Shown here: positions 580-19,792 of the stretch, piece by piece
Position numbering within the stretch: the first letter of the stretch is position 1
Layout: every line of letters begins with the position of its first letter
Assembly (NCBI RefSeq): GCF_008086615.1
Contig: NZ_RXYB01000012.1
Coordinates: 30,075-54,074 of the forward strand
Direction: 5' to 3'
Length of the DNA: 24,000 bases
Source: Acetobacterium tundrae
GTDB taxonomy: Bacteria > Bacillota > Clostridia > Eubacteriales > Eubacteriaceae
Notes under the pieces: model-generated
Databases searched by the model: none
Told to the model about the DNA's origin: nothing
What the model saw: the letters and a program-made list of their open reading frames with translations, nothing else
Translations under genes and position numbers: made by a program

Positions 580-703
580 AATTGATTGAAGTTGGCTGAG
601 TGCAGAAGTAAGCCATTTATTTTATAATGATCTTTATTATCAGTGATCAGAAAAACGGTGAATTACCTACTACGCTGTTTGAATCCCTACTTCAAATCCG
701 GTC

Positions 704-1213
704 ATGGCAGTCAATAGAGAGCTTAAAGTGATCTATATGAATGAGTCGGAGAAAAAACTTCTGAAGAAATCTGCGGACAACATTATCGGCAGCGTTGAAT
801 TTATCATGGATATCACCGAATGCGTTTTATATGAGAATCGGCTCAAAGAACAGAGTCATACCATCCGGGAAATGTCAACTCCGACGATTAAACTATGGGA
901 AGGCGTCCTGGTTCTGCCGGTTGTCGGTGTAGTCGACTCCCTGCGGGCCCAGCATATGATGGAAAGCATGCTGAATGAAATTGCGGAAACCTATTCAAAA
1001 GTGATTATTTTGGATATCCACGGTGTTGCGGCGGTGGATATGGCCGTTGCAAACCGTCTGATTAAAATTGCCAAAGCAACCAAACTCATGGGCTGTGAAT
1101 GCATGGTCAGGAATATCCCCGGCAGTCGATCAGACTATCATACAGTTGGGCACATCGAGCGTACTAAGAATTATGTGCGAATTCTTGCCGAAAAGTTGAG
1201 TACCTATGAATAA
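704..1213 (+). pseudogene. Chimeric pseudogene: rsbR-like PAS-STAS remnant fused to a fragment of the HD-GYP response-regulator gene
   Basis: The protein matches residues of the 6733-7530 product but lacks the first ~24 codons and has no RBS. It has a 180-bp in-frame PAS deletion (NIIG|SVEFIMD) and a 2-bp deletion near 1104 that shifts frame. It then reads HIERTKNYVRILAEKLSTYE, identical to 11814-11873. The Thr of VDTAVA is replaced (VDMAVA). Confidence 0.8.
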
Positions 1214-1265
1214 TAGTCTGTAAAAAACGATGCCACGCGATCTTTATCAAATTTCATGAATAAAG

Positions 1266-1294
1266 ATGCAAAAACAATCGCATTGTAGTATAAT
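1266..1294 (+). promoter_or_regulatory. Candidate sigma-A promoter (copy 1) for the leader and phosphatase gene
   Basis: Perfect -10 TATAAT at 1289-1294. Weak -35 ATGCAA at 1266-1271 with a 17-nt spacer. The same arrangement is conserved at 12588-12616. Confidence 0.5.
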
Positions 1295-1299
1295 ACAAA

Positions 1300-1445
1300 T
1301 CAAGCGAAACGGAAAGTCATCAGGGATGCTTCGTTAGTCATCTTATCAGTCAGTAGTTGAGGACAGGCAGTTAAAAACATCCCCGTGTCATTTGTATAAC
1401 CAACTGAAAAGTGTGTGAACTATTAAAAATTCAAGATAAAAATTT
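1300..1445 (+). promoter_or_regulatory. Conserved ~150-nt 5' leader, unclassified (copy 1)
   Basis: About 88% identical to 12617-12757. Predicted stem 1303-1311/1327-1335 (AGCGAAACG/TGCTTCGTT) is invariant between copies, while the enclosed loop varies. AGTCA motifs recur. Confidence 0.4.
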
Positions 1446-1457
1446 GGAGGGATGGTA

Positions 1458-2390
1458 ATGGAAAAAGATAGGAAAGTTATTCTTTTGGGGTTATGTGTAA
1501 CTGCTTTAGTTTGTATCTTTGCAATGGCAGGATGTGGCGTTAACACCAGCGAAAAAGGAGCCGGCAATGCACAGATAAAAAATACAGTAACCCAGGAAAG
1601 TCAGACAATCGGATTAACAGGGGTTGATAACGCTCGTCAATTGGGGGAATATGTAACAACTGACGGAAAAAAAATTAAAGATGGCATTTTACTAAGAACA
1701 GGAAAATTATCTGGTGCTACCAACGAAGATATTACCACATTAACTGGAAAATATCACCTTACGGAAATCATTGATTTACGGTCAACAGCAGAAATTGAAG
1801 CAGCTCTAGATCCGGTTATTGATGGGGTCACTGAGGAGAATGTTCGAATTGCTGATGAGACCAGTCCTGCATATTTAACTGCGATGTCAGTTGTGCGTAC
1901 TGATGATCCAGTAGGTGATGCGATCACAGAGGTTGAAAATGGAACAATAAGCGATACGTTGTATTCATACATTGTTACGAGTACTTATGGGCAACAGGCA
2001 TATCACGAATTCTTTGAAAAATTACTTGCACATGAAAATGGAGCAATTCTGTTTCACTGTTCTGCAGGCAAGGATCGTACTGGTCTAGCAGCCGTTTTAC
2101 TACTCTCGGCTCTTGGTGTAGACCGAGAGACAATTATGGAAGATTTTGCATTAACAAATGATTTTTATGCTGATAATATTGATTATATGGTCAGTGAAAC
2201 AAAAAAAAGAACAGATGACGCTAAAATAATTGAAGGCGTTTATGCCGTGGTTGGTGCAAATTCAAGCTATATGGAAAAAATGTTTGATGCGATCAATGAA
2301 AAATATGGATCGATGGATAACTTCTTAAAAGAAGCAATTGGACTAACTGATAAAGATGTGACAAAGTTGAGAGATATGTATCTTGAATAA
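1458..2390 (+). CDS. Lipoprotein tyrosine-protein phosphatase (Y_phosphatase3-like, CX5R)
   Basis: GGAGGG at 1446-1451 lies 6 nt before ATG 1458; ATG 1452 is too close to it. Signal peptide with lipobox FAMAG|C. Active-site loop HCSAGKDRTG. Confidence 0.8.
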   Translation: MEKDRKVILLGLCVTALVCIFAMAGCGVNTSEKGAGNAQIKNTVTQESQTIGLTGVDNARQLGEYVTTDGKKIKDGILLRTGKLSGATNEDITTLTGKYHLTEIIDLRSTAEIEAALDPVIDGVTEENVRIADETSPAYLTAMSVVRTDDPVGDAITEVENGTISDTLYSYIVTSTYGQQAYHEFFEKLLAHENGAILFHCSAGKDRTGLAAVLLLSALGVDRETIMEDFALTNDFYADNIDYMVSETKKRTDDAKIIEGVYAVVGANSSYMEKMFDAINEKYGSMDNFLKEAIGLTDKDVTKLRDMYLE

Positions 2391-2466
2391 TGGTTGCTTA
2401 TTATGGGACTGAAAGACCAGGCTCAATTCATATGATGCAGAGACTTTCAGAAAAAAGGAGATAATT

Positions 2467-2637
2467 TTGAAAATTGTTTGTTTTGGCGACAGTTTGACTT
2501 TTGGATATAATGTAGCCCACAAAGATAAATGGCATGTCCTCGCAGAAAAGAAGACCGGGATCCGAATGCAAAACAGCGAAATTAACGGGGATACCACTGA
2601 TGGGATGCGATTTTATTTGCGGGTTTCTGTTACCTGA
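2467..2637 (+). pseudogene. 5' stub of SGNH/GDSL hydrolase gene (paralogue of 12866-13438)
   Basis: AAAGGAG followed by TTG 2467, then KIVCFGDSLTFGYN. Homology to 12866-13007 ends at 2608, and the frame terminates at TGA 2635-2637 after 56 codons. Confidence 0.8.
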
Positions 2638-2669
2638 CCTATCTGTATTTTGATCAAAATAAATTAGAG

Positions 2670-3401
2670 TTGCCAATAGGGTTTGAGCTCCGTCACTCAT
2701 TCAGAGGTATAGCAGGGGTGACTGAAGAAATTGAAGAAAAGTTCGGATTCATCGCGGAGTCTCAGGATCGGATTGTACTGGCTTTTCGTGGATCGGATTC
2801 GACTCTGAATCTGGATTCTGATCTCGATCTTTTTCAGACTCCATTACCCTATGTGGAAAATGTCGGCAACAGCCATAGAGGAATTACCCGGGTTTATCAG
2901 TCGATGTGCGAAGAGTTGATCGAGATTGTACGGAAACTGCCTGAAGACAAAAGACTCTATCTAACCAGCCATAGTCTGGGAGGAGATCTTGCCATAATGA
3001 CAGCACTGGACTTTGCAGTCAATATACCAAATAAAGATCTCGTTGTTTACACTTATGCTGCTGGTAGACCTGGTGCTCCGGATTTTGTGAATGATTACAA
3101 CACTTATGTTAAAAACAGCTATCGGATTTTTAATGTGCATGATTTTATTCCAACCCTGCCTGCATTTGAATATCCGCCGCCCTTTACGGAAAAGGGGTTA
3201 TTTTATGAACACGTTGATTTTTCGGTGCCGATTAGTTTTCAGATGAATAACCTGTTCTTAAATCACCGGATAAACTGTTATTTTCAGAAGTTGGGTGAGT
3301 TGGATATCGATTATATGAACACTTTGCGTAAAAAGAACCCGAATTTTTGTCCTGAGGCCATTAATTTGCAGGAATTGGCAATATCAATGGCAAATAATTA
3401 A
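2670..3401 (+). CDS. Class-3 lipase family protein, probably 5'-truncated
   Basis: AFRGSDS, nucleophile elbow SHSLGG and NVHDFIPTLP are Lipase_3 hallmarks. The frame is open back to 2601 (WDAILFAGFCYLTYLYFDQNKLELPIGFEL), but the only start is TTG 2670 with no RBS. The 5' end abuts the duplication junction at 2608. Confidence 0.6.
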   Translation: MPIGFELRHSFRGIAGVTEEIEEKFGFIAESQDRIVLAFRGSDSTLNLDSDLDLFQTPLPYVENVGNSHRGITRVYQSMCEELIEIVRKLPEDKRLYLTSHSLGGDLAIMTALDFAVNIPNKDLVVYTYAAGRPGAPDFVNDYNTYVKNSYRIFNVHDFIPTLPAFEYPPPFTEKGLFYEHVDFSVPISFQMNNLFLNHRINCYFQKLGELDIDYMNTLRKKNPNFCPEAINLQELAISMANN

Positions 3402-6451: not shown

Positions 6452-6610
6452 ACGTGGCATAGGAATGTTTAGATCTGGAAACATTGATTTGGTTATATTC
6501 TTTATTATCAGTGATCAAAAAACGATGAAATAACACTTCGCCGTTTGAATCCCGGCTCCAATGCCATGTTTTCTCTTGTTTTCACTACCTTGCTCAAAAT
6601 AAGGTTTAAT

Positions 6611-6732: not shown

Positions 6733-7530
6733 ATGAAAAAGATGTATCAGGAAGCAGATGATCAACTGAAATCTCAGATTCTTGACCAAATTCCAACTCC
6801 AGTCATGGCAGTTAACAGAGAGCTTAAAGTGATCTATATGAATGAAGCGGGAAAAAAACTCCTAAAGAAATCTGCGGACAATATTATTGGTTTAGCCTGT
6901 AAGGATTTAATTGCGACTGAGCAGTGTGGTACTGAACAGTGTGGTATGCTGAAAGCTATCAGTGACGGCAAATCTTTTAGCGGTCGTACTGAAATCAATA
7001 CTGGAGAGAACAGGATCCAGGTTGAATATTCGGTTGTACCTTTGCAGGATGACAGCGGTGAAATTATCGGTGGCGTTGAATTTATCATGGATATCACCGA
7101 ACGTGTTTTATATGAGAATCGGCTTAAAGAACAGAGCCATACCATCCGCGAAATGTCAACACCGACGATTAAACTCTGGGAAGGCGTTCTGGTTCTGCCA
7201 GTTGTTGGTGTGGTCGACTCCCTGCGAGCCCAGCATATGATGGAAAGCATGTTGAATAAAATTGCGGAAACTTATTCAAAAGTGATTATTCTGGATATCC
7301 ACGGTGTTGCGGCGGTGGATACGGCCGTTGCCAATCATCTGATTAAAATCACTAAGGCAACCAAACTCATGGGCTGCGAATGCATCTTGTCAGGAATATC
7401 TCCGGCAGTCGCTCAGACGATCATACAGTTGGGAATTGATATGGCAGCTATCAATACCCAGGCAACACTCAGTGACGCTCTTTCAGAAGCGTTCATTATC
7501 CTGAGTCTGGAAGTTATTACAAAAGAATAA
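6733..7530 (+). CDS. rsbR: RsbR-like stressosome sensor (N-terminal PAS, C-terminal STAS)
   Basis: AAAGGAGG RBS. PAS region PTPVMAVNRELKVIYMNEAGKKLL...GGVEFIMDITER. STAS region STPTIKLWEGVLVLPVVGVVDSLRAQ...DIHGVAAVDTAVANHLIK. By my by-eye alignment, Ser/Thr sit at the positions of B. subtilis RsbRA T171/T205. Confidence 0.85.
   Translation: MKKMYQEADDQLKSQILDQIPTPVMAVNRELKVIYMNEAGKKLLKKSADNIIGLACKDLIATEQCGTEQCGMLKAISDGKSFSGRTEINTGENRIQVEYSVVPLQDDSGEIIGGVEFIMDITERVLYENRLKEQSHTIREMSTPTIKLWEGVLVLPVVGVVDSLRAQHMMESMLNKIAETYSKVIILDIHGVAAVDTAVANHLIKITKATKLMGCECILSGISPAVAQTIIQLGIDMAAINTQATLSDALSEAFIILSLEVITKE
6916..6945 (+). repeat. 15-bp tandem duplication inside the PAS domain (TEQCG x2)
   Basis: ACTGAGCAGTGTGGT / ACTGAACAGTGTGGT, with one synonymous difference. 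Confidence 0.9.
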
Positions 7531-7545
7531 TAAAGAGATAGGATT

Positions 7546-7923
7546 GTGAAGCACATGACTATAGAAGGTTATAACATATCCATAACGGTAATCGATAACA
7601 ATTTCATTGTGGTACTTCCGGAAGAAATGAACAATGTGACTATCGGAAAAATAGAAAGTATGGTGACGGAGAAAGCCTACCAAAACGAAATTAATGGTGC
7701 CATCCTTAATTTTTCGATGGTTTCTGTCATGGACACTTATACCTATCGTGCTTTTGAACGTATAACTGATGTTTTTTCACTGATGGGGATTCATACTGTA
7801 TGGGTCGGTTTGCGCCCAGGGGTTGTTTCAGGACTGATGGATTTAGATATTGCCGTCAATTTGAAAATAAAAATGGCGTTGAATCTTGAACTTGGTTTAG
7901 TATTGATTGATCGTGACAGATAA
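7546..7923 (+). CDS. rsbS: RsbS-like single-domain STAS protein
   Basis: 125 aa. ...NGAILNFSMVSVMDTYTYRAFERITDVFSLMGIHTVWVGLRPGVV... aligns by eye with B. subtilis RsbS, with Thr at the Ser59 position. The start is uncertain (GTG 7546 or ATG 7555). Confidence 0.8.
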   Translation: MKHMTIEGYNISITVIDNNFIVVLPEEMNNVTIGKIESMVTEKAYQNEINGAILNFSMVSVMDTYTYRAFERITDVFSLMGIHTVWVGLRPGVVSGLMDLDIAVNLKIKMALNLELGLVLIDRDR

Positions 7924-8396
7924 TGAACCGAAGTAATGATCCGTTTGAAATAGAAGCCGATGCAAAGAATAAGATCATCGAAACAAAAAAATTAGACCTG
8001 ATTTTGAGTCACGATAATGAGAACGTTGTGTTTTCAGTTCGTCAAATTGCAAACAAAGCAGGATTCAGTTTGATTGATGAAGTCCTGATCGCTGTGGCAG
8101 CATCTGAGTTAGCCACGAATATTCTGCGTTATGCTGGAAAGGGATCGATCAAAATAAATATTATCTGCGATGTCGTCAGCGGAATTACTGGCATTGAGCT
8201 TCTGGCAAATGATGCTGGACCGGGAATTAAAGACATTGAACTGGCTCTGCAGGAAAATTACAGCACACAGGTCAACAGTTTGGGGCAGGGTCTCCCCAGT
8301 GTAATTAAAATTATGGATGAATTCCATATCAAATCTGAATCGGGAAAAGGAACTCGTATTCTCACCCGAAAATGGCTAAAAAACGAAGAAAATTAA
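7923..8396 (+). CDS. rsbT: RsbT-like GHKL serine/threonine kinase (switch protein)
   Basis: The start overlaps the rsbS stop (TAATG). N-box ELATNILRYA, G1 NDAGPGI, G2 GQGLPSV, 157 aa. Confidence 0.85.
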   Translation: MNRSNDPFEIEADAKNKIIETKKLDLILSHDNENVVFSVRQIANKAGFSLIDEVLIAVAASELATNILRYAGKGSIKINIICDVVSGITGIELLANDAGPGIKDIELALQENYSTQVNSLGQGLPSVIKIMDEFHIKSESGKGTRILTRKWLKNEEN

Positions 8397-8532
8397 GTGC
8401 ATAATTGAAATGGAAACATCGCTGAGGATGCCGATATAATTGCAGAAGGTATTCTTTATTAACCGAAAAAAATAATATGCTCCCTCTATTCAGATGGAAT
8501 AGATAATATATGGACAAAATGGAGGTTGTGTA

Positions 8533-11289
8533 ATGATTGAACTGGGCCAAATTAAAGTTGACTCCAATAATTCCATGATTGAGGCTAGAAAAAAAGCACG
8601 CTCAATTGCTTTGAAACTGGGCTGTTCAGAAGTGACTGCCACTCGGATTGAAGCGGCAGTGTCAGAAACAATCAGACAGCTTCTTGACAGTATGATGACG
8701 ATTGATTTTGCCGTTTCAGTTAAAGAATCTGTTGGGGAAATTCCAATCAGAAATGGTATCAATATCATTTTTGACAATTTTGATTATCCGCTCAATCCGG
8801 ATTTTAAAGCGCAGCATTTTGAAAATTTTGTTTCTTCTGAAACGGTAAATGGAAAATATACATTCACAATCTTTTTACCTTTTATCACGATCGATCCGGA
8901 TTTTAGCTATTCTCTGGTCGAAGAATTGAAGAGCGAAATTGAATCGCCTTCCAAAGAGGAACTGCTAAAAGAAATTGAGTGCAAAAACATCGAGCTCGCA
9001 AATAGCAGGCAGTTTATGGAATCGGTGCTGGAAAATCTACAGGCTGCCGTTTATGCAAAAGATTTAAATGGCAACTACACCTATATCAACCGGCACTGGG
9101 AAGAAGCAACAGGTCACAAACGGGATGAATGTATTGGCCGAACCGCAAAAGAAGTTTTTTCGTCAGACGGAGAGGCGTATGACCAAAACGATCAGGATGT
9201 CATTAAGTTACAGGAAAACCAGGTAACCGAGGAATATTCCATAAAGGACAAGCAGAAACGGACCTACCAATCAACCAAGGTGCCAATGAAACAAAACGGA
9301 GATATTGTTGGGATATGCAGTATTTCCACGGATATCACGCAAAGAAAAAAAATGGAGGAGGAATTATTTGAAGCCAAAATTCTTGCTGAAGAAGCGGCGG
9401 AATCTAAATCTTATTTTCTGGCCAATATGAGTCATGAGATACGCACACCGATGAATGCCATATTGGGAATGAGCTATCTCATCCAGAAAACCGATCTGTC
9501 GATAAAACAGCAGGACTATGTTAATAAAATACAGCAGTCAGGACAGCACCTGCTGGGTATTATCAATGATATTTTGGACTTTTCAAAAATTGAAGCTGGC
9601 AAACTAAATATCGAATCCATTGATTTTAAACTCTATGAAGTGCTGGATAACCTCTCCAATTGCAACAGCGAGAAATGCCTTGCCAAAAATCTGGAGCTAG
9701 TGTTTGATGTTGATCCGGATGTACCTAATGAATTATGCGGTGATCCGCTGAGAATCGGACAAATCCTGATTAACTATGTAAACAATGCAATTAAATTTAC
9801 TGATCGGGGAAGAATTACGGTTAGAATTAGAAAAGATAAAGAATTTTCAGATGGATTTCAGCTTAAATTTGAAGTTCAGGATACCGGAATCGGTTTGAAA
9901 GAAGAGCAGCAGTCAAAACTCTTCCAATCATTTCAGCAGGCTGATATATCCACAACCCGGAAATATGGCGGAACAGGTCTTGGCCTTGCCATTTCCAGGA
10001 AATTGGCAACTTTAATGGGTGGTGAAGTTGGTGTGAAATCCGAATTTGGAAAAGGCAGCATTTTCTGGTTTACCACCCATTTTAATGTCACCGAAAAAGT
10101 TTTGAAATCCAATGTTCCCTATCCTAGCTCTGACAATCCCTGGGTTATGTATGAAACCGAACTTGGAATTCCTAAAAAAAGCTGTAAGCTTGAACCGGAA
10201 AAAAGAAGTCTGGATTCTGTCACGGGTCAAAAGAATCTGCAGGACCTTTGCAATGCGAAAATTCTGCTGGTGGAAGATAATGAACTCAATCAGGAAGTTG
10301 CCGTTGAAATCCTCAGGGATGTGGGATTACAGGTTGATATAGCCGCCAATGGCGAAATTGCAGTTGCAATGGTTGATCAAAAAAAATATGATCTGGTGCT
10401 GATGGATATGCAGATGCCAGTTTTAGATGGGCTTGAAGCCACAAGACAAATCCGTTCCAACAATCGGTTCAGGAATCTGCCAATTGTAGCGATGACTGCC
10501 AATGCAATGGCCGGTGATCGGGAACAATGTCTTGCCGCCGGAATGAATGATCATTTACCGAAACCGATTGTACCTGGAGATCTTTTCAAAATGTTGGTTC
10601 GATGGATACCGTCATTCAATCATACTCCGTATTTATTTGAACGCCGTATCGATATTGTCCATGAGGATCCATTGGATCAGGAGGACATTAGAATAAGCGG
10701 GCTGGATATCGAACTGGGTCTTGGTCACGTCCTGGGAAAGAAAAAATCCTACAAGAATCTCCTACGAAAATTTGCTTCAGGTCAAAAAAACGTAATAGAT
10801 GATATTCGAAAATCAATCAATAATGGAGATTTTAACACGGCGGAACGGCTTGTACATACACTGAAGGGTGTTACTGCCAATATTGGAGCGATGGAAATAA
10901 ATAAAAATGCCGAAATCCTAGAAACAGCTATCAGAGAAGAACCTGCCAGTGAAGCATTAAAAACGTTAATTCAAAATATTGATCTGCCATTAAAAAATTT
11001 GATTACTGCTCTAAAAAAACAATTGCCTGAGAAAGAGAACGCCATTAAGGTTAACTTTTCCGTAACCTCAAACTTGGCCCTGATTTCTTTTCTGGAAGAA
11101 CTCATGCAGTATATTCGGGTCCGAAAGCCAAAAAGATGTTCAGAAGTAATTGAATCCCACTATGAAATTTGCTGGCCGGATGAACTCAAAGACGAAGCAT
11201 CTGATCTCTATCAATTTATTTCAAAATATCAATTTAAGGAAGCTGCTGAAAAGGTGGAGTCCTTATTAATCAGATTAAGTGAGGTTTGA
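8533..11289 (+). CDS. Hybrid sensor histidine kinase: novel N-domain, coiled coil, PAS, HisKA, HATPase_c, REC, HPt
   Basis: GGAGG lies 7 nt upstream. H-box [14 protein letters not shown]-box [11 protein letters not shown]1 DTGIGL, G2 [13 protein letters not shown] segment ILLVEDN...[13 protein letters not shown]...KP. HPt motif [12 protein letters not shown]. Confidence 0.9.
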
Positions 11290-11291
11290 TT

Positions 11292-12407
11292 ATGAAAGTA
11301 TTATCGGAATGTACTGTTTTAATTGTGGATGATACGGAAATCAATATCGATATTCTGGTCGAAGCTCTGGGTGATGATTATGAACTGTCTGTGGCCATGG
11401 ATGGGGAATCCACTCTCGAAATTGTAAAAATGGAACGGCCGGATTTAATTTTGCTGGATATCATGATGCCGGGAATGAGCGGATATGAGGTGTGTAAAAA
11501 ACTTAAAACAAATGCTGCAACATCCGATATACCGATCATTTTCTTGACTGCCATGACAGATATCGAAAGCAAAAGAAGAGGATTTGAAGCAGGTGCAGTC
11601 GATTACATCACCAAACCGTTTGAAATACTCGAGGTGAAGGCGCGTGTACAGACCCATCTGTTCATCACGATGGCAAGGAATGAACTGGCCATGCAGAACG
11701 AGATCCTTGAAAAACGGGTTGCTGAACGAACCAGGGAATTATGTCTGACTCAGGAAATTACCATAGAAGCCCTAGCTTCGCTTGCTGAGTATCGGGATCC
11801 TGATACAGGCGGGCACATCGAGCGTACTAAGAATTATGTGCGAATTCTTGCCGAAAAGTTGAGTACCTATGAAAAATATAAAACGATTCTGAATGACGAA
11901 GTCATTCAGATTTTTTACAAATCGGCACCGCTTCATGATATCGGTAAAATTGGAATACGAGATGATATCCTCCTTAAGCCGGGAAAGCTGACACATGATG
12001 AATTTGAAGAGATGAAACGGCATACTGTTATCGGTTACGAGGCACTCCGCATTGCAGCGTTAAAACTAGGCGAAAATTCATTTCTTAAACATGCCATGGA
12101 ATTTGCAAAATACCATCAGGAAAAATGGGATGGTTCTGGTTATCCCGATGGTCTCTCAGGGTATGACATTCCCCTTGCCGGTAGAATCATGGCGATTGCG
12201 GATGTCTATGATGCGCTCATCAGTAAAAGAGTCTACAAACCGCCTTTTACACATAAAAAAGCAGTCGAAATTATCAAGGAAGGCAGAGACAGTCATTTTG
12301 AGCCATTAATGGTAGATGCATTTCAAGAAGTACAAGAATTGTTTCGGCAAATCGCGATTAAATATGCAGATTATCCTGAGGAATTAATAGCCTTGAATGA
12401 AAAATAG
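11292..12407 (+). CDS. Response regulator with HD-GYP domain (RpfG-type c-di-GMP phosphodiesterase)
   Basis: GAGG lies 7 nt before ATG 11292; TTG 11286 overlaps the HK stop. REC segment VLIVDD...LILLDIMMPGMSG...KP. HD-GYP motifs HDIGK and HQEKWDGSGYP. Confidence 0.9.
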   Translation: MKVLSECTVLIVDDTEINIDILVEALGDDYELSVAMDGESTLEIVKMERPDLILLDIMMPGMSGYEVCKKLKTNAATSDIPIIFLTAMTDIESKRRGFEAGAVDYITKPFEILEVKARVQTHLFITMARNELAMQNEILEKRVAERTRELCLTQEITIEALASLAEYRDPDTGGHIERTKNYVRILAEKLSTYEKYKTILNDEVIQIFYKSAPLHDIGKIGIRDDILLKPGKLTHDEFEEMKRHTVIGYEALRIAALKLGENSFLKHAMEFAKYHQEKWDGSGYPDGLSGYDIPLAGRIMAIADVYDALISKRVYKPPFTHKKAVEIIKEGRDSHFEPLMVDAFQEVQELFRQIAIKYADYPEELIALNEK

Positions 12408-12502: not shown

Positions 12503-12541
12503 TGGCAACATATAATATTATATGTTGCCAATTTTTGTGTT
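12503..12541 (+). terminator. Rho-independent terminator of the signalling operon
   Basis: Perfect 28-bp palindrome TGGCAACATATAAT|ATTATATGTTGCCA at 12503-12530, followed by ATTTTTGTGTTT. Absent from copy 1. Confidence 0.8.
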
Positions 12542-12587: not shown

Positions 12588-12616
12588 ATGTAAAAATGAT
12601 CGCAATGTAGTATAAT
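12588..12616 (+). promoter_or_regulatory. Candidate sigma-A promoter (copy 2)
   Basis: -10 TATAAT at 12611-12616, -35 ATGTAA at 12588-12593, 17-nt spacer. Conserved with 1266-1294. Confidence 0.5.
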
Positions 12617-12857
12617 AAAAATCAAGCGAAACGGGTAGTCATCAAGGATGCTTCGTTGGTCATATTATCAGTCAGTAGTTGAGGACGGGTAGTCAAAAGT
12701 CTCTCCGTTTCATTTTTATAACCAAATGAAGCGTGAGCGAACTATTAAAAATCAAGAAGAGAGCTGTATCTTGAATAATGGTTGCTTATTCAGGGACTGA
12801 CAGACCAGACCAGACCAGGCTCAATTTATATGATGCAGAGACTTTCAGAAAAAAAGG
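12617..12857 (+). promoter_or_regulatory. Conserved 5' leader, unclassified (copy 2), now directly upstream of the SGNH hydrolase gene
   Basis: Predicted stem 12625-12633/12649-12657. Exact 11-nt direct repeat ACGGGTAGTCA at 12631-12641 and 12685-12695. AGTCA/GGTCA motifs at 12637, 12658, 12670 and 12691. Confidence 0.4.
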
Positions 12858-19348: not shown

Positions 19349-19792
19349 ATGAAAAAAATACTTGTACCGGTCGATGGTTCTGAAATTTCATTAAAAGGAG
19401 CCGACAAAGCTATTGAATTGGCAAAAAAATTTGGGAGTGAAGTGACTTTTCTTTCCGTCATTGAAATAAAACCACTATTTTACGGGGCTGGAGCAATTCC
19501 GACAAATTCATTGGAGTTGATGAAGCAAATTGAAGACAATCAGTCAGAAGAATTTGAAAAACTGTTGGATTCTCTTTTGGAAAAATATAAAAGCTCGGGG
19601 CTGGTTCTTAAGAAAAAAGTCATAGCCGGCGCTGTGGATGCGAAAATTGACGAGTTTGCCAAAGAAGAAAATTTTGATTTGATCGTCATGGGAAAAAGGG
19701 GAATGAGTGCTGCAAAGCGTTTCTTTGTTGGTTCAAATACCAGAAAAATTATTGAAATTGCACCTTGCTCTGTTTTAGTTGTAAAAGATTAA
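19349..19792 (+). CDS. Universal stress protein (UspA family)
   Basis: MKKILVPVDGSE...DLIVMGKRGMS...VGSNTRKIIEIAPCSVLVV. Confidence 0.85.
   Translation: MKKILVPVDGSEISLKGADKAIELAKKFGSEVTFLSVIEIKPLFYGAGAIPTNSLELMKQIEDNQSEEFEKLLDSLLEKYKSSGLVLKKKVIAGAVDAKIDEFAKEENFDLIVMGKRGMSAAKRFFVGSNTRKIIEIAPCSVLVVKD

Follow-up and report, generated by a model that had tools for sequence, protein, structure and literature searches.

The five co-oriented genes at positions 6733-12407 of the analyzed stretch of Acetobacterium tundrae DNA (24 kb, hereinafter the window) are, by gene order and protein similarity, a stressosome locus of the Vibrio type, and the architecture is not new. Previously unremarked is a degenerate RsbT-like pseudokinase domain that opens the hybrid histidine kinase (HK) encoded downstream of rsbRST. 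We consider it likely that the stressosome acts through this domain on a phosphorelay running from HK to an HD-GYP response regulator (RR), rsbX having been deleted in the clade.

Organization of the locus

According to the ORF list and Pfam, the gene order is rsbR-rsbS-rsbT-HK-RR, with roles predicted from similarity:

6733..7530, + strand: rsbR, co-antagonist with PAS_4 and STAS matches (PAS 6781-7107, STAS 7177-7479)
7555..7923, + strand: rsbS, single-STAS antagonist, phospho-acceptor Thr61 at 7735-7737
7923..8396, + strand: rsbT, GHKL Ser/Thr switch kinase (HATPase_c_2)
8397..8532, no strand: rsbT-HK spacer of 136 nt, the site of rsbX (~590 nt) in relatives
8533..11289, + strand: HK, hybrid ("unorthodox") histidine kinase of 918 aa (Pfam and alignment with relatives)
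11292..12407, + strand: RR, REC-HD-GYP response regulator of 371 aa (Pfam, PDB matches)
12503..12540, + strand: terminator-like hairpin with a T-run, 12-bp stem, 96 nt past the RR stop (consensus scan)

The ORF positions given in the sequence-only reading of this DNA agree with the ORF list, and its domain assignments agree with the Pfam search of the five proteins, where every match is above the curated cut-off. Its description of the genes as tightly packed holds for two junctions: rsbS and rsbT overlap by 1 nt in TAATG (7921-7925, read from the sequence), and the HK stop codon TGA (11287-11289) is separated by 2 nt from the RR start codon ATG at 11292; it does not hold for rsbT and HK, with the 136-nt gap between them. 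The start of rsbS is either ATG at 7555 (the public gene call) or the alternative GTG at 7546. The hairpin at 12503-12540 is the probable end of the operon, and the consensus scan revealed no terminator-like site between rsbT and HK. The spacer, ~85% conserved with A. paludosum, contains a promoter-like, sigma-70-like site at 8411-8440 (a consensus match only), so HK and RR might have their own promoter; it has no significant RNA structure (z -0.24).

A remnant of a second operon copy lies upstream:

614..1215, + strand: "ghost" of a second operon copy, a blastn mosaic with 80-96% identity

The ghost combines four operon segments (6482-6561, 6794-6890, 7063-7433 and 11803-11878), and the product of its ORF 704-1213 is an RsbR' that lacks PAS, is cut short at the C-terminus and runs into a fragment of RR; Thr is replaced by Met in its second phospho-site. 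The ghost is absent from A. paludosum, and the operon of that species resembles it slightly more (94%) than the resident A. tundrae operon does (91%).

Stressosome core proteins

RsbR matches PAS_4 (2.9e-17) and STAS (4.3e-16), both above the curated cut-offs, and its best PDB match is RsbR of the V. vulnificus stressosome (7o0i_B, E 2.5e-47), with Listeria and Bacillus at 1e-26. Residues Ser163 (7219-7221) and Thr197 (7321-7323) correspond in the alignment to both acceptor Thr of Listeria and Bacillus RsbR and to the Ser/Thr of V. vulnificus RsbR. Three Cys (C56, C65, C70) are invariant in the family, conservation of the Cys and phospho-sites having been checked in nine relatives. RsbS matches STAS (2.5e-8, above the curated cut-off), and its best PDB matches are RsbS of B. 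subtilis (6jhk, 6.6e-9), V. vulnificus (7o0i_a) and Listeria (6qcm), and Moorella MtS (2vy9, also 3ztb). Its Thr61 aligns to Ser59 of B. subtilis RsbS (6jhk), Thr being found there in 8 of 9 relatives.

RsbT matches HATPase_c_2 (5.3e-8, above the curated cut-off) and, in PDB, SpoIIAB. It has 97 homologues, many carrying the JGI name RsbT, and its E62/N66 (N-box), D97xG99xG101 and G121xG123 are invariant columns in 25 homologues. The profile searches thus place the products of 7546-8396 in the RsbS and RsbT families, as had been read from the sequence; the alignment to solved RsbR and RsbS and the invariant motif columns likewise bear out the retained phospho-acceptors and the intact N, G1 and G2 boxes of RsbT. 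RsbR and RsbS thus bear the hallmarks of a stressosome core, and RsbT, as a GHKL Ser/Thr kinase, is intact. A large pseudo-icosahedral RsbR/RsbS assembly sequestering RsbT is putative, given the STAS similarity to chains of solved stressosomes (7o0i, 6qcm, 7b0u).

Hybrid kinase and response regulator

The domains of the two output proteins and their relay or catalytic residues are as follows:

8533..8886, + strand: HK N-terminal domain, residues 1-118, degenerate RsbT/RsbW-like GHKL fold
9013-9348, + strand: HK PAS (PAS_4)
9406-9600, + strand: HK HisKA, His301 at 9433-9435
9739-10077, + strand: HK HATPase_c, N418, D450xGxG, G480xGxG
about 10090-10260, + strand: HK relic of the deleted first REC (REC1), by alignment with relatives
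10261-10596, + strand: HK REC, Asp625 at 10405-10407
10759-11013, + strand: HK Hpt, His775 at 10855-10857
11316-11648, + strand: RR REC, Asp56 at 11457-11459
11775-12305, + strand: RR HD-GYP, His215-Asp216, H275-Q276-E, G283-Y-P

The Pfam matches of HK (PAS_4; HisKA, 7e-22; HATPase_c, 1.5e-27; Response_reg, 3.8e-28; Hpt, 4e-10) are all above the curated cut-offs. The order HisKA-HATPase-REC-Hpt stands as first read, while the PAS domain and the N-terminal domain of ~118 aa had been overlooked. The H-box His, the N, G1 and G2 boxes, the receiver Asp and the Hpt His are all present in a single polypeptide; judging from these motifs, HK is a cytoplasmic hybrid kinase with all relay residues (His301, Asp625, His775). 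The kinases of close relatives carry two RECs, while the Acetobacterium one has a single REC, REC1 being deleted according to the alignment; REC1 is also lost in the relative P0102 (882 aa, read as a protein alone). HK belongs with unorthodox hybrid kinases such as BarA, ArcB and TorS; it is not a BarA orthologue, since its score, 462, is below the BarA equivalog cut-off of 890.

RR matches Response_reg (2e-28) and HD_5 (3e-27) above the curated cut-offs, while its score of 155 is below the NCBIfam NosR-family cut-off of 400. Its PDB matches include PA4781 (4r8z, 1.1e-52) and PmGH (4mcw, 4.3e-40). RR shares the REC + HD-GYP architecture and the HD and GYP motifs with RpfG, PA4781 (4R8Z) and PmGH (4MCW), and seven of the eight PmGH-type metal-ligand positions are conserved. 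It differs from them in having HQE for HHE (H277 replaced by Gln276, a variant of the second His common to five relatives) and Asp at the position of the PmGH ligand Glu185. Some HD-GYP proteins act on cGAMP (5z7c is among the PDB matches of RR), and some are inactive. The motifs present make RR a predicted HD-GYP c-di-GMP phosphodiesterase.

The N-terminal domain of the kinase

Residues 1-152 of HK have no Pfam match even at E <= 10. A four-helix RsbT receiver of the RsbU_N type (PF08673), as in RsbU, MtG and some proteobacterial HKs, was considered and rejected, as there is no Pfam match and the predicted fold is alpha/beta, GHKL-like, and no helical bundle. Alignment of the N-domain with 25 RsbT homologues (hhalign) yields a probability of 94.9% (E 4.6e-8), and the N-domain HMM cross-matches genuine RsbT at 1e-8 to 1e-11. 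For the AF2 model (pLDDT 84), the top 15 Foldseek matches in PDB are UsfX, SpoIIAB and RsbW, with TM 0.55-0.78 and modest E (1e-3 to 1e-2). Hence, the domain shares the fold of RsbW, SpoIIAB and M. tuberculosis UsfX, which are STAS-binding GHKL proteins, and shows profile homology to RsbT. Unlike RsbW, SpoIIAB and UsfX, it is fused to a histidine kinase, has Gln49 in place of the N-box Asn and has lost the G1/G2/ATP-lid region by deletion, and there is no sigma factor in the locus. With the N-box Asn, G1 and G2 gone, it is a pseudokinase and no member of the family in the catalytic sense. Its helix rich in Ser and Arg is invariant (S14, R19, K21, R38, S44, R48).

In distant kinases, an intact RsbT-like domain occupies the same position, and the N-domain forms grade continuously from catalytically intact into degenerate ones. 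The N-domain comes after RsbRST(X) in every locus with a readable neighborhood, including the loci with globin-type RsbR; in particular, P0105 and P0109, found via the HK N-domain only, are both encoded directly after R-S-T-X. In the metagenome census described below, an N-terminal pseudo-GHKL or RsbT-like domain opens the next kinase in most, not all, loci with sufficient flank. In our view, it is most likely this domain that connects HK physically to the stressosome, into which it probably plugs the kinase.

Conservation of the locus and loss of RsbX

The order R-S-T(-X)-HK is observed in more than 10 independent lineages, and a REC-HD-GYP gene is next wherever the contig reaches. In seven relatives (46-74% RsbT identity), R-S-T-X is followed by a protein opening with the HK-type N-domain, which is a hybrid kinase in six cases (then REC-HD-GYP where the contig reaches) and a class-III cyclase in one. 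The same N-domain kinase is encoded in metagenomic loci (L045, L053, L055) whose RsbR has a Protoglobin sensor, as in V. vulnificus. This conserved synteny strongly supports the initial proposal that RsbRST feeds HK and RR.

The proposed absence of RsbX, RsbU, RsbV, RsbW and a sigma factor is confirmed within the window: none of the remaining ORFs matched PP2C, RsbU/V/W or sigma-factor families in Pfam, and three RsbX proteins used as tblastn queries gave only matches with E > 0.3. No PP2C was found in 16 kb of A. paludosum, and neither tblastn nor blastn-short found an rsbX remnant in the 136-nt spacer. In all nine related loci from protein look-ups, an RsbX of ~195 aa (SpoIIE/PP2C) is encoded between rsbT and the output gene, and in a metagenome census of 80 RsbT loci, scored with custom HMMs, nearly all loci with enough flank have RsbX next after RsbT (or RsbT-RsbT2). 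A. tundrae, A. paludosum and one metagenomic lineage form an RsbX-less clade (95/100) nested among RsbX-bearing loci. RsbX was lost independently in two further lineages, one of which retains an rsbX stump; in L023, an independent loss left the operon otherwise complete. Judging from this pattern, the absence of RsbX in A. tundrae is a derived, lineage-specific deletion at the rsbT-HK spacer and not a primitive state.

Purifying selection still acts on all five genes: dN/dS between A. tundrae and A. paludosum is 0.04 for rsbR, 0.25 for rsbS, 0.30 for rsbT, 0.20 for HK and 0.09 for RR, with dS of 0.23-0.46. For rsbS, rsbT and HK, the ratios are about twice those in the RsbX-bearing sister pair L005/L009 (0.25-0.30 vs 0.12-0.13). 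HK and RR both carry lesions in L017/L018, the sister metagenomic lineage without rsbX; with RsbX gone, the pathway may therefore be under relaxation.

Proposed mechanism and alternative explanations

We infer the following coupling mechanism and RsbX-free reset. Redox state, O2 or a metal, sensed by the PAS domain of RsbR, would let RsbT phosphorylate RsbS Thr61 and RsbR Ser163/Thr197. This would alter what the stressosome holds, with the N-terminal pseudokinase domain of HK serving as the coupling handle, which may dock on the STAS domains of RsbS/RsbR like RsbT or pair with released RsbT. The change would pass via the coiled-coil/PAS linker to control HK autophosphorylation, and phosphate would be routed from His301 to Asp625, His775 and RR Asp56, activating HD-GYP in phosphorylated RR and lowering c-di-GMP. 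Reset without RsbX could be provided by an unlinked phosphatase, by protein turnover or dilution, or by the bifunctional kinase/phosphatase activity of the relay. The PAS domain of HK could also sense independently, a point against this main reading.

If HK-RR were an independent two-component system merely lying beside rsbRST, with the HK PAS as the sole input, this would agree with the promoter-like match in the 136-nt gap and with the PAS_4 domain itself. Such independence is very improbable, as the adjacency is kept in more than 10 lineages, in Firmicutes-like and GC-rich genomes and with globin-, PAS-, Fe-hydrogenase-like- and RsbRD_N-type RsbR sensors; moreover, in L017 and L023 the stop codon of rsbT touches or overlaps the start of HK, the HK of L006 has no PAS but keeps the N-domain, and the constant position of the N-domain noted above points the same way. 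A functional link could also be enzymatic. Phosphorylation of the output protein by RsbT has been proposed for VvD1 (Heinz et al. 2022) and for MtG in Moorella; here released RsbT would phosphorylate Ser/Thr of HK, the N-domain being merely a dimerization or substrate module. RsbT is catalytically intact by its motifs, the invariant Ser/Arg-rich helix of the N-domain fits this explanation, and a transient kinase-substrate contact would explain why RsbT-VvD1 binding was not detected by two-hybrid in V. vulnificus (PMC9237108). Still, we find it improbable: the N-domain itself is an intact RsbT-like kinase in distant relatives, so a paralogue sharing the STAS docking sites fits better than a substrate, and its closest structural matches are GHKL proteins crystallized with STAS partners. 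The negative two-hybrid result argues against a stable RsbT/N-domain complex, not against STAS docking.

The pathway might instead be a decaying relic, locked by the rsbX deletion as RsbS~P and RsbR~P accumulate, non-functional or pseudogenizing, with frames intact owing to the recency of the loss. The L017/L018 lesions (an internal HK deletion removing the G2 box and REC, a nonsense codon in RR and, in L018, CGA to TGA at HK codon 7) are in line with decay, as are the loss of REC1 from the Acetobacterium HK, the elevated dN/dS and the decayed operon copy 5.5 kb upstream. We consider decay unlikely, however, since the five ORFs are intact in two species at dN/dS 0.04-0.30, the dS of 0.23-0.46 being divergence enough for neutral genes to show lesions, and all catalytic and phospho-acceptor residues are retained. 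Moreover, REC1 is also lost in P0102 and HK is frameshifted in the RsbX-bearing L009/L010, so such lesions are not specific to RsbX loss, and L023 remains otherwise complete after its independent loss of RsbX.

Comparison with known systems

The architecture had been called at best poorly characterized, which is not the case: it is of the type of the V. vulnificus locus, RsbRSTX with the sensor kinase VvD1 and VvD2, predicted to degrade c-di-GMP, known from comparative genomics since 2005 and later from genetics (PMC9237108, PMC10014275). There, RSTX is co-transcribed in time with VvD1 and VvD2, and mutants in D1 and in RSTX have common motility/fleQ phenotypes, in line with breakdown of c-di-GMP (PMC9237108, PMC10014275). 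Both loci have R-S-T followed by a sensor kinase and a predicted c-di-GMP-degrading regulator, similar RsbR STAS (best PDB match 7O0I) with the same Ser/Thr phospho-site pattern, and no sigma-B, RsbU, RsbV or RsbW; HK and RR are likened to VvD1 and VvD2 by the literature description and the globin-type metagenomic loci. The A. tundrae locus differs in the Cys-rich PAS (PAS_4) in place of the heme globin sensor on RsbR, the absence of RsbX, the single REC of HK (two in close relatives) and the host, an anaerobic Firmicute.

With the RsbRST-RsbU-RsbVW-SigB-RsbX system of B. subtilis and Listeria, it shares the STAS core with conserved phospho-acceptors, the RsbT GHKL kinase and the R-S-T order, while it has no RsbU_N receiver, PP2C, partner-switch pair, sigma factor or RsbX, and its signal is predicted to leave through a phosphorelay that ends at an HD-GYP enzyme. 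The Moorella thermoacetica MtR-MtS-MtT-MtX-MtG system, as far as described in the citing papers (Quin et al. 2012, cited in PMC4976288 and PMC12143880), is also a stressosome of an anaerobic acetogenic Firmicute with c-di-GMP control. According to the same descriptions, it includes MtX, unlike the A. tundrae locus, and acts directly on a GGDEF cyclase (synthesis) with RsbU_N, while in A. tundrae a four-step phosphorelay to HD-GYP (degradation) would be reached via the RsbT-like pseudokinase domain.

Implications

Signal output of stressosomes outside Bacillus and Listeria is an acknowledged gap, and no RsbU_N has been found in most downstream proteins, VvD1 included (Heinz et al. 2022). The conserved N-domain is a concrete candidate for the coupling element of stressosome output proteins. 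Tentatively, we suggest as a possibility that an RsbT-derived pseudokinase domain is the missing receiver linking Vibrio-type stressosomes, including that of VvD1, to kinases and cyclases. It would replace RsbU_N and take up the RsbT-type docking sites of the RsbS/RsbR STAS core, the output enzyme itself thus being sequestered by the stressosome. If true, the recurrent loss of RsbX (three lineages) would show that such wiring runs without a dedicated reset phosphatase. The RsbX-less clade, with its two cultured Acetobacterium species, and the two independent losses are natural experiments on stressosome reset without the feedback phosphatase. With regard to acetogens, the operon points to control of c-di-GMP turnover by a Cys-rich PAS sensor.

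Operon structure and conserved residues

The five genes of the operon lie where the sequence-only reading had placed them, and its domain assignments, including those to the RsbS and RsbT families, are confirmed, as all five proteins exceed the curated Pfam thresholds.

Features of the operon (window coordinates; domains according to Pfam)
6733-7530, + strand: rsbR, PAS and STAS domains
7555-7923 (alternative GTG start at 7546), + strand: rsbS, STAS domain
7923-8396, + strand: rsbT, HATPase_c_2 domain
8533-11289, + strand: hybrid kinase (HK), 918 aa, PAS-HisKA-HATPase_c-REC-Hpt
11292-12407, + strand: REC-HD-GYP regulator (RR), 371 aa, REC-HD_5
12503-12530: terminator-like hairpin 3' of the operon (none inside it)

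The tight packing described earlier holds for the TAATG overlap of rsbS and rsbT and for the 2-nt HK/RR junction, but not for the rsbT-HK junction, which contains a 136-nt spacer. The proposed phospho-acceptors are indeed retained according to solved structures, with Thr61 of RsbS at the Ser59 position, and Ser163 and Thr197 of RsbR at both acceptor positions; the structures matching RsbS are those of RsbS from B. subtilis, V. vulnificus and Listeria, and also Moorella MtS. The RsbT boxes are likewise intact (E62, N66, DxGxG and GxG), being invariant across 25 homologues. The relay residues His301, Asp625 and His775 are present in HK, as are Asp56, His215-Asp216 and GYP in RR. The HD-GYP domain of RR carries HQE in place of HHE, which could be taken for an inactivating lesion; this was rejected, since five relatives have the same variant. 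Also in agreement with the earlier reading, no RsbX (PP2C feedback phosphatase), other PP2C, RsbU/V/W or sigma factor was found anywhere within the 24-kb window.

The kinases of the relatives have the order HisKA-HATPase-REC-REC-Hpt, and the alignment shows that HK lacks the first of these two REC domains; residues 520-576 (window about 10090-10260) are a relic of the deleted domain, with the C-terminal part alone still alignable. The PAS domain of RsbR contains Cys residues in positions 56, 65 and 70 (window 6898-6942; C-x8-C-x4-C), invariant in all aligned PAS-type relatives, which suggests a possible metal, Fe-S or thiol-redox sensor in this strict anaerobe. The gene for a universal stress protein (Usp, Pfam 1.2e-31) lies 7 kb downstream of the operon (19349-19792). 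The long non-coding stretch at 12600-12780, before a GDSL-lipase gene, looks partly self-complementary; as Rfam gave no match at gathering thresholds in the whole window, the structured-looking part at about 12620-12730 is not a known riboswitch.

N-terminal domain of the hybrid kinase

HK residues 1 to about 118 (the N-domain) match no Pfam family even at E <= 10; among the families without a match is RsbU_N, known as the RsbT receiver. Word-indexed protein searches with this domain yielded nothing at first and then two fragments only, while the exhaustive search found it solely at the very N-terminus (residue 1) of long signalling proteins, that is, hybrid kinases and one PAS-cyclase. Two of these proteins were looked up independently, and both are encoded directly after RsbR-S-T-X.

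Profile-profile comparison of 13 N-domains with 25 RsbT homologues covers the whole domain (probability 94.9%, E 4.6e-8), and true RsbT proteins are cross-matched by the N-domain HMM (1e-8 to 1e-11). The search of PDB sequences with the N-domain profile gave no match. The AF2 model from the single sequence has pLDDT 41.6, so that the one from a 12-sequence alignment was used instead (pLDDT 84, pTM 0.77); its best 15 Foldseek matches in the PDB are UsfX, SpoIIAB and RsbW (TM 0.55-0.78), all of them GHKL proteins of the anti-sigma type with crystal structures that include STAS partners. In distant loci with the order R-S-T-T2-X-HK, the kinase N-domain still has the N, G1 and G2 boxes and is matched by the RsbT HMM at 1e-20 to 1e-34. 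In the A. tundrae group the Asn is replaced (Gln49 in A. tundrae) and the ATP-lid/G1/G2 segment is missing, and hence the N-domain, RsbT-like by the profiles and the model, is a pseudokinase domain.

The same domain is fused to PAS and a class-III adenylate/guanylate cyclase, with no histidine kinase, in the metagenome locus L013 (8005-10104) and in the homologous protein P0099, and thus appears to be a portable input module. The papers covered by our literature search contain no description of the N-domain, and Heinz et al. state explicitly that they detected no receiver domain in the V. vulnificus sensor kinase VvD1 (PMC9237108).

Gene order in relatives and loss of rsbX

Around seven RsbT homologues (P0013, P0018, P0019, P0012, P0004, P0029, P0065; 46-74% identity) the gene order is the same in all cases: PAS-STAS RsbR, RsbS, RsbT and a SpoIIE/PP2C RsbX of about 195 aa. 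The expected kinase and HD-GYP partners were also found: the next gene encodes a hybrid kinase of 906-1034 aa in six contigs, followed by a REC-HD-GYP protein of 366-373 aa wherever the contig extends that far, while in the remaining one (Maridesulfovibrio) RsbX is followed by a PAS-PAS class-III cyclase instead. The contig scan with a single RsbT as the query produced two loci only. A census of metagenomes with purpose-built HMMs covered 80 loci. In essentially all of those with enough flank, RsbX follows RsbT or an RsbT-RsbT2 pair.

Some census loci differ in other respects. Two tandem RsbT paralogues precede RsbX in distant loci (L031, L034, L039, L048, L062, L064, L070, L071, L092 and others), and the N-domain of the kinase adds a third RsbT-like domain there, its motifs intact. 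In L021 (3698-5449) the RsbR sensor consists of two 4Fe-4S ferredoxin motifs and a Fe-only-hydrogenase-like domain (Fe_hyd_lg_C 6.7e-32), joined to the same strongly conserved STAS and followed by RsbS-T-X, an N-domain kinase and REC-HD-GYP.

The five genes recur in A. paludosum, where RsbT is 85% identical and rsbX is likewise missing. In the tree from concatenated RsbR, RsbS and RsbT these two species and the metagenomic L017 form one clade (95/100), nested among RsbX-bearing lineages; therefore rsbX was deleted once, in their common ancestor. No rsbX remnant was detected by tblastn and blastn-short in the 136-nt spacer, the whole window or A. paludosum, and the RNA fold of the spacer is not significant. 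There are two more independent losses. In the GC-rich L023 the stop codon of rsbT lies right next to the HK start, while the rsbT-kinase spacer of L033 (2122-2374) retains an rsbX stump of about 30 codons, FECGDAGVIKEFEGKIFFALIDVLGHGGKY, with the ECGD...LGHG motif and then a stop, and thus L033 is a loss caught in progress.

Candidate substitutes for RsbX, namely STAS and Y_phosphatase3 genes, are located upstream of the operon.

Upstream features (window coordinates)
614-1215 (ORF 704-1213): decayed second operon copy with internal deletions; four segments 80-96% identical to operon positions 6482-6561, 6794-6890, 7063-7433 and 11803-11878
704-3401: insertion specific to A. tundrae relative to A. 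paludosum
1452-2390: Y_phosphatase3 protein (Pfam 5e-64), inside the insertion
2670-3401: class-3 lipase, inside the insertion, along with the STAS ORF

The decayed copy encodes a C-terminally truncated RsbR without PAS, in which Met replaces the Thr of the second phospho-site and to which a short piece of RR is fused; identity of the copy is slightly higher with the A. paludosum operon (94%) than with the resident one (91%). Both genes were rejected as substitutes, being missing in A. paludosum, and the STAS ORF being a truncated mosaic of the operon. In particular, Y_phosphatase3 is unlikely to replace RsbX, as it is not conserved with the operon.

Selection and decay

Comparison of A. tundrae with A. 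paludosum (dS 0.23-0.46) yields dN/dS of 0.04 for rsbR, 0.25 for rsbS, 0.30 for rsbT, 0.20 for HK and 0.09 for RR, so that all five genes are under purifying selection. In the RsbX-bearing pair L005/L009 the values are 0.13 (rsbS), 0.12 (rsbT) and 0.125 (HK); the roughly twice higher values of these genes in the Acetobacterium pair are a suggestive difference, though a noisy one.

The sister lineage L017/L018, which also lacks RsbX, has intact rsbR, rsbS and rsbT and lesions in the output genes (L017 1778-4974; L018 3917-3960): an internal deletion in HK of L017 removes the G2 box and REC, RR of L017 has a nonsense codon (Tyr to stop), and HK codon 7 of L018 is changed from CGA to TGA stop. 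These lesions could be a result of the RsbX loss, but this explanation is weakened by RsbX-bearing L009 (8190-8210) and L010 (3595-3615), where HK is split inside HisKA by the loss of 1 nt from a T-run, and decay thus is not specific to the RsbX loss. The L009/L010 change is identical in two samples and may be either a true frameshift or a sequencing error in the homopolymer.

Comparison with known systems and possible mechanism

The STAS domain of RsbR has much greater sequence similarity to the V. vulnificus stressosome structure (7O0I, E 2.5e-47) than to RsbR of Listeria and Bacillus (about 1e-26). The V. vulnificus locus consists of rsbR-S-T-X followed by the sensor kinase VvD1 and VvD2, and HisKA/REC/HPT/HDc output modules are on record in comparative surveys (PMC9237108). 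Hence the path from the stressosome via a phosphorelay to c-di-GMP degradation, which the sequence-only reading considered at best poorly characterised, has an already described architecture, characterised genetically, not biochemically. The V. vulnificus system is related and works alike, VvD1 and VvD2 being likened by description, not by sequence; unlike that locus type, the A. tundrae operon has neither the globin sensor nor RsbX. Loci with Protoglobin-sensor RsbR (the V. vulnificus type) carry the same N-domain kinase. The operon also differs from the Bacillus-type pathway by the lack of RsbU_N, RsbV/W and sigma-B, and from the Moorella type by the lack of GGDEF.

The overall stressosome-to-c-di-GMP picture is probable for this operon. 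The PAS domain of RsbR with its three cysteines may sense the redox state, O2 or metal, and the STAS acceptors would be phosphorylated by RsbT. The RsbT-like domain of HK might then compete for, or occupy, those sites of the core that serve for docking on STAS, or else pair with released RsbT; we prefer docking on STAS as the coupling step. The resulting change would be passed on to HisKA, the phosphate would move from His301 via Asp625 and His775 to Asp56 of RR, and c-di-GMP would be degraded by the HD-GYP domain. Reset without RsbX would require an unlinked phosphatase, dilution, or the phosphatase activity of the relay itself. Beyond the known operon type, what is new here is that the lack of RsbX is derived, and that an RsbT-like pseudokinase domain has been recognised as a putative receiver; both merit follow-up.
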